64,000 nt of DNA, taken from the NCBI GenBank assembly GCA_964016885.1, contig OZ024752.1, positions 40,672,001 to 40,736,000 on the forward strand, written 5' to 3'. The DNA is from Eledone cirrhosa. Lineage: Eukaryota. The notes below the pieces were generated by a model. That model made no database searches. It worked only from the letters and a program-made list of their open reading frames with translations, and was not told where the DNA came from. The translations under genes were made by a program, and so were the position numbers. Below are positions 30,424-30,873 of this stretch, one piece after another (position 1 is the stretch's first letter; every line of letters starts with the position of its first letter).

Positions 30424-30873
30424 GCAAAGTTTTATTTAAATTGTTGGGTTACAACGAGTAAATATTTTATAACTGATATAAAAGCACTCAACAGTTTCTG
30501 GAGTAGGTTTACGATATTAAACAAATGGAAACTATATTTATAAAACCATATTTATTACGTTATATATATTTCTGGGATATCATATTAAAAATATGGTATG
30601 CCTTCCTCAGACAAAATACAATACATAAGCTGTTTTATAAATAATTTTGACATACCTTATAATAATGCAACTTCCATTTAAAAAGTTACTACCAAATAAA
30701 CTTTTTAAATGGAAGTTGCATTATTATAAGGTATGTCAAAATTATTTATAAAACAGCTTATGTATTGTATTTTGTCTGAGGAAGGCATACCATATTTTTA
30801 ATATGATATCCCAGAAATATATATAACGAAATAAATATGGTTTTATAAATATAGTTTCCATTTGTTTAATATC

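Follow-up and report, generated by a model that had tools for sequence, protein, structure and literature searches.

A type I hammerhead-shaped motif in an inverted insertion, likely the 3' end of a Penelope-like element, and moderate support for selection on its fold in the parent elements

Hammerhead ribozymes were described in the pseudo-LTRs of metazoan Penelope-like elements (PLEs) by Cervera & de la Pena (2014; PMC4209133), whose account, in the portions drawn on here, includes dual min-HHRs on opposite strands 100 to 700 bp apart, covariation-rich families, a helix III that is small and palindromic in a number of invertebrates, and a monomer that is inactive with low activity of the dimer. 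The corresponding portions of other PLE studies report an inverted 5'-truncated copy, a tail at one end and a (TA)n bias (Craig et al. 2021; PMC8557442), head-to-head pLTRs (Arkhipova lab 2013; PMC3846280), and a tail attributed to a stem-loop that holds two reverse transcriptase (RT) start sites (Frangieh et al. 2024; PMC11167929). According to the last of these, PLE cleavage occurs at AT-rich DNA and the ribozyme is protein-assisted, and in the single PLE studied in vitro, ribozyme mutants left insertion unimpaired. The literature thus already covers hammerheads at PLE ends, along with their covariation, their cleavage as dimers and their layout in inverted pairs, and the family analyzed here, family A, is one more. 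A literature search found no prior description of an octopus Penelope hammerhead, the alignments in the supplement of PMC4209133 being one place that could hold family A, and the octopus repeat annotation PMC13282606, in the part available, makes no mention of "ribozyme".

The window, i.e., the whole 64-kb stretch of DNA that was analyzed, is AT-rich, microsatellite-laden, animal-type DNA, and its ORF listing gave no long coding frames outside simple repeats. It holds four family A insertions, three full head-to-head inverted ones and one partial (Table 1; referred to below as 12k, 22k, 30k and 45k). Judged on its letters, the flagged motif at 30768-30833(+) is a real hammerhead-shaped (type I) motif. 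The core (C3 U4 G5 A6 N7 G8 A9, G12 A13 A14, A15.1-U16.1, H17) is complete in all five full copies, which vary in it only at N7, just as a previous sequence-only reading had it. Three helices with open ends in stem I surround this core, with 90 of 100 cells paired over the five copies against 28 to 51% in slid-register controls, and the descriptor passes four of the five. The minimal stem III of that reading was likewise found, as two A-U pairs plus a tetraloop that is AUAU in the flagged copy and AUGU in 3/5 copies. Its assignment to hammerheads and its idea of dimer cleavage agree with this anatomy and with the literature, as far as the parts used of PMC4209133 and PMC6765202 go. The pattern CTGANGA-N8-38-GAAA matched 12 times in the window, five of them family A, as opposed to 1.54 ± 1.22 times in 100 shuffles.

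Table 1. Coordinates of the family A insertions and of the parts of the flagged copy (positions within the window)
Feature	Position	Strand	Remarks
Inverted insertion 1 (30k)	30428-30877	both	between (TA)n runs; arms join at 30687/30688
Tail of 30k insertion, ~85 nt, one arm only	30428-30511	-	three predicted hairpins; lower depth, separate read ends
Partner hammerhead	30553-30618	-	same as flagged copy except U.U in stem I (30557)
Flagged type I hammerhead	30768-30833	+	one arm of inverted insertion 30428-30877
Flagged copy, stem I, 8 bp	30768-30775/30826-30833	+	
Flagged copy, core CTGAGGA (CUGAGGA)	30776-30782	+	intact
Flagged copy, stem II	30783-30792/30804-30813	+	
Flagged copy, GAAA	30814-30817	+	
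Flagged copy, stem III	within 30768-30833	+	2 bp (A-U/U-A) + AUAU loop
Flagged copy, predicted cut after AUA	30825/30826	+	
Segment 3' of flagged ribozyme to usual element end	30834-30877	+	most conserved part, 1 variable column in 43
Inverted insertion 2 (12k)	12838-13290	both	hammerheads 12881-12945(-) and 13091-13155(+); tail ~13199-13285
Inverted insertion 3 (45k)	45394-45750	both	hammerhead 45438-45502(-); tail ~45669-45750
Partial insertion 4 (22k)	22534-22728	both	tail fragment 22534-22586(-); arm from stem II on 22632-22728(+)

Since no Rfam hammerhead model matches, the assignment is based on core and stems. These models gave no match at the gathering score over the whole window, and over two insertions, with 31 and 3 matches listed at E ≤ 10, they were absent; a stem II this long and a stem III this small may be the reason. 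Rfam miRNA matches over 30599-30787 were set aside as reflecting the inverted repeat, and the MFE folds of family A monomers resulted in structures other than the hammerhead. A covariance model built from the five full copies and run on the window recovered all five plus two truncated ones, 45559-45625 (E 5e-9) and 22617-22681 (E 8e-8), the next of its 28 matches lying at E 0.07. In viral, metagenome and prokaryote-genome collections, the 27-nt conserved pattern had no loci; a looser core pattern had 92 metagenome loci, dismissed as chance, with both stems in 0/92 and BLAST matches that covered the pattern alone.

Other features of the window were recorded in passing. Family B forms inverted pairs at 18809-18936 and 41555-41745, with a CTGATGA..TGAAA core, a very short stem II and CAGTT after GAAA, and has a decayed copy at 10024-10075; adjoining it at 18918-19147 is a long near-perfect inverted repeat in which no hammerhead core was seen. 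A solo, textbook-looking hammerhead at 57917-57964(+) (CTGATGA-GTCC/GGAC-GAAAC, GUU site, 3-bp stem I, then AATAAA) has no second copy in the window. Adjoining the flagged insertion is a separate inverted-repeat insertion, 30973-31304, with 50-nt arms, to which a piece at 49479-49579 is related; at 31065-31092 a CTGACGA core is accompanied by one additional nucleotide and a stem II closed by G-C, but not by a stem I. Similar single C2H2 zinc-finger matches, sub-Pfam cut-off and probably repeat-borne, occur at 1153-1323(+), 34938-35105(+) and 38701-38871(+). The frames 18399-18821(+) and 43357-43740(+), which have no Pfam match, look to us like the C-terminus of RTE-type LINE proteins, and a short repeat at ~58330-58400 presumably resembles an octopod SINE. 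Tandem arrays lie at 58653-59638, 53974-56029 and 61438-63964 (~113-bp period by ORF spacing; ~21-bp and 38-bp minisatellites).

The two arms of an insertion are close duplicates, differing at 1 of 157 sites (30k), 0 of 93 (45k) and 6 of 146 (12k), and the insertions are 85 to 97% alike. The copies at 12881 and 13091 count once because both are arms of one insertion, and the independent sample is three insertions plus one partial, not the separate copies. Paired hammerheads within one insertion start ~210 bp apart, and the hammerhead ends ~45 nt before the usual element end; the + arm of the 45k insertion is cut off at stem II (starts ~45576). Reads and contigs from the public runs considered below continue past the arm junction at 30687. 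All three full tails (30428-30511(-), 13199-13285(+) and 45669-45750(+)) have the same three predicted hairpins, the first with an A-U/G-C swap (CAA/TTG vs CAG/CTG), and the last, GTTG/CAAC, is kept in 4/4 tails, including 22534-22586(-). The tail hairpins may be an RT start signal. Immediately 3' of the ribozyme, 30834-30867 and its homologues form a 34-nt near-invariant stretch conserved above the ribozyme itself, possibly a protein-binding or 3'-end signal; there were no entries for 30523-30556 among the run variant rows listed.

The architecture by itself would make family A a likely PLE 3' end, consisting of pseudo-LTR and tail. No RT or GIY-YIG match was found in 150 of 225 frames of the window, no PLE ORF that would point to a clade was seen, and the copies are short; Naiads are unlikely since they are without canonical hammerheads. 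Being long inverted repeats within TA-rich DNA, with (TA)n on both sides in 4/4, the insertions might be thought foldback or MITE-type DNA transposons that end in long terminal inverted repeats and carry the hammerhead as a passenger. We regard this as highly improbable: the arms end at different inner points with no common internal sequence, the ends are asymmetric, with an extra tail at one end in all four insertions, and read depth declines steadily toward the inner side.

To look at the family more widely, 4 of 16 public runs, the 16 including no RNA run, were aligned to the reference 30428-30700 at 80% likeness (small-share runs X6-X9 were left out), placing on it 3,646 contigs from X1, possibly the assembly's own source, 77 from X4, a run with a second organism label, 3 from X5 and 32,084 RAD reads from X14. 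The X14 frequencies are distorted, since 11,212 molecules start at 30600, a pattern normal for RAD data, and serve qualitatively only; depth-weighted shares are not copy numbers. Depth peaks at 30528-30557, just 3' of the ribozyme, and drops ~300-fold by 30680 on the 5' side. Many reads terminate in (TA)n at 30510-30523, with a smaller share running on through the tail. In two X14 reads, 40 letters connect 30687 with 30439, which suggests head-to-tail units of 289 nt separated by a short TA run.

This joint is one reason to consider that family A might have arisen from a PLE end as a short (~290 nt), retrozyme-like unit, non-autonomous and mobilised in trans, rather than as a truncated piece of a coding element. 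Consistent with that are the longest arms, which carry no coding remnant, a stem III of 2 bp plus tetraloop resembling that of axolotl HHR_Amex2 (PMC7229834, in the part cited), and a 2026 preprint that, in its available part, argues for a pLTR origin of retrozymes. However, tandem arrays occur in 0/4 window insertions, the joint amounts to two reads with a TA run, which a partial tandem, or integration next to a copy already present, could produce, and variable 5' ends with an optional tail suit ordinary PLE copies, so that we find the proposal doubtful. The same low degree of belief attaches to its fuller version, in which family A would be a non-autonomous ~290-nt PLE-derived RNA element between pLTR and retrozyme, moving as head-to-head pairs, with a hammerhead made atypical by its A-U closing pair, internal C.C and AUA site, with a long three-hairpin tail as RT start signal, and abundant in at least two species.

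Returning to the PLE 3' end as the likelier identity, the question is whether its fold was selected in the master elements, as the sequence-only reading proposed from a stem I series. The letters of that series are correct, namely TATTTTAT/ATGAAATA at 12881-12945(-) and 13091-13155(+), TATTTTGT/ATGAAATA at 45438-45502(-) and TATTTTGT/ACGAAATA at 30768-30833(+); omitted from it were a fifth full copy, 30553-30618(-), with U.U in stem I, and two 5'-truncated copies, 45576-45625 and 22632-22681. Pair 2.2-1.2 is A-U in 2/5 full copies, G.U in 1/5 and G-C in 2/5. As evidence of covariation this progression is weak, because either transition from G.U yields a Watson-Crick pair, and given two changes its neutral probability is 0.25 to 0.64. 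Among the aligned contigs, G.U is the common state of the pair, with G-C and A-U each one transition off: position 1.2 is U in 93% of depth in X1 and 98% in X4; the states at 2.2 and 10.1 are known solely via counts by kind of change, and A-type copies may be under-counted through clipping. In X1, position 1.3 is A in 45%, turning U.G at 2.3-1.3 into U-A.

The flagged copy is the poorest example of such a fold. Its stem II, said to have been rebuilt with a different sequence while staying largely paired, has a 5' strand identical to that of the 45k copy and three changes on the 3' strand, one of which betters G.U to G-C and two of which break pairs (C.A, and A.A at 10.1-11.1), while loop changes add two pairs. 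Three of ten pairs are broken, A.A 30783/30813 (10.1-11.1), C.C 30786/30810 and C.A 30790/30806, the C.C mismatch being common to 4/5 full copies, and the fold energy of stem II is -5.4 kcal/mol vs -14.8 for 12881-12945(-), which has a perfect 10-bp stem II. The flagged copy's C at 1.2 and its A at 11.1, the latter breaking the core-adjacent pair, are minority states, at ≤7% (run contigs) and ≤9% of family depth, respectively. Pair 10.1-11.1 is A-U in 3/5 full copies and A.A in both 30k copies (usual in type I: G-C); in X1, 11.1 is U in 68% and C in 23%. This damaged copy is predicted to be inactive.

Stronger indications come from the stems as a whole. Two-sided change is seen in 3/20 stem pairs of the five full copies. 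The better cases in stem II are a U-A/C-G difference between the 45k and 12k insertions, another A-U/G.U/G-C series, and, in 22k, G.U in place of the C-G or C.A of other copies. In a neutral simulation of the four insertions, with hub and tree set by hand, the ten observed changes newly break 2 pairs vs 6.2, 5.4 and 4.7 expected at transition shares of 0.5, 0.67 and 0.8 (P 0.007, 0.028 and 0.072); with three insertions, P is 0.03 to 0.17, and directional 12k/30k tests give 0.04 to 0.17 or 0.001 to 0.01 by choice of ancestor. A shuffle control of 3/500 is not used as a P value here, since it would treat duplicate arms as separate. The 12 core positions contain none of the 13 variable columns (P 0.051), and N7 is three-state in X1 (U 52%, A 9.5%, rest G), where loop III has G in 24%; all five C>T places and the one C>A place in X1 fall outside 2.2, G5, G8 and G12, with no such change at ≥4% at G5, G8 or G12. 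By variable columns, the ribozyme (14/65) is not conserved above its flanks (upstream 14/52, downstream 1/43). In X1, G at the stem II C.A site reaches only 11.5%, making that mismatch apparently common among the aligned contigs, and not all masters therefore kept perfect stem II pairing.

A purely mutational origin of the paired changes, by transitions at G.U, a CpG-type change at ACG and hairpin-repairing template switching, draws on the fact that 4/10 between-insertion stem changes are single transitions at G.U pairs. It draws also on an arm-private change that produced the perfect palindromic stem II, found in 12881-12945 only; of the three arm-private stem changes, this kind of repair accounts for one and pair breaks for two. 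Template switching can fix stems (PMC8794818, in the part consulted), and the stem test loses significance at a transition share of 0.8 (P 0.07 to 0.17). The share observed between insertions is ~0.5, however, where P is 0.007 to 0.03, the stem I arms lie ~50 nt apart, and template switching does not account for a single-stranded core that never varies when N7 beside it has three states; we therefore consider this origin unlikely. The claim of a fold selected in masters hence stands with moderate support, from all stems, two two-sided changes of stem II and the core, and not from the stem I pair first cited for it: selection in the parent elements probably preserved both stems and core, on evidence that is moderate and not decisive.

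The account we favor, and think probable, is that family A is the high-copy 3' end of a PLE, with stems and core selected in masters that cut as a dimer and with window copies predicted to be inactive. A master RNA with tandem ends would be transcribed and, the monomer stem III being too weak, two ribozymes would pair via the self-complementary 8-mer A15.1-U16.1 (monomer hairpin +4.7 kcal/mol; 8-mer duplex -3.2 for AUAU and -2.2 for AUGU). The dimer would cut after AUA, perhaps protein-assisted, and the PLE reverse transcriptase/GIY-YIG endonuclease would nick AT-rich DNA for target-primed copying into (TA)n. Copying would begin at either of two start sites, giving copies with or without tail, and an early stop plus template switch would give the inverted partner arm. 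Different masters would lie behind the subfamily differences, and so behind the wobble-to-Watson-Crick and two-sided changes; inserted copies would then drift and accumulate pair breaks. Because the two ribozymes of an inverted insertion such as the flagged one sit on opposite strands, no cis dimer is possible and the insertion is predicted to be inactive. A read-through transcript would instead form a long hairpin hiding the ribozyme: in the whole-insertion transcript the stem I pair has a probability of ~1e-57 and the ribozyme stems <1e-14, because the arms pair with each other.

Family A, whose variants run to thousands across at least two organisms, would offer a clean test, at genome scale rather than in the window, of master selection for the fold. 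Such a test would bear on the role of the ribozyme in PLE transposition as discussed in the cited parts of PMC8557442 and PMC11167929, and if the ~290-nt element reading is true, selection on master RNAs would be mappable base pair by base pair.

Compared with known systems, family A departs in several respects from the PLE min-HHRs as given in the part of PMC4209133 used here: stem I has 8 bp vs a typical 4 to 5, the closing pair is mostly A10.1-U11.1 instead of the typical G-C, an additional nucleotide between 9 and 10.1 is not evident, helix II has an internal C.C, and the presence of a 2-bp helix III sets it apart from a strict min-HHR. Where 11.1 is C (23%), pairing in an alternative G-C register may be possible. 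It resembles non-LTR retrozymes, such as axolotl HHR_Amex2 as covered by the cited part of PMC7229834, in its type I topology, 2-bp helix III plus tetraloop, low GC and possible ~300-nt unit, the dimer cleaving better in HHR_Amex2; retrozymes, in contrast, form direct tandem arrays of 150- to 450-bp units, whereas all four family A insertions consist of inverted pairs or fragments. Expression as linear and circular monomer RNA is a further trait of retrozymes. The Dolichopoda pDo500 hammerhead shows compensatory change at this stem I pair (1.2/2.2) as well as in stem II, which the part of PMC2837043 at hand interprets as functional constraint, and belongs to cave-cricket satellite arrays represented by 198 sequences, as opposed to four dispersed insertions here. 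The likeness to PLE insertions, taking the same portions of PMC8557442, PMC3846280 and PMC11167929 as above, comprises an inverted 5'-truncated partner, head-to-head arrangement, a one-end tail with stem-loop and AT-rich/(TA)n targets, with a tail of ~85 to 90 nt in family A vs the published 30 to 40.
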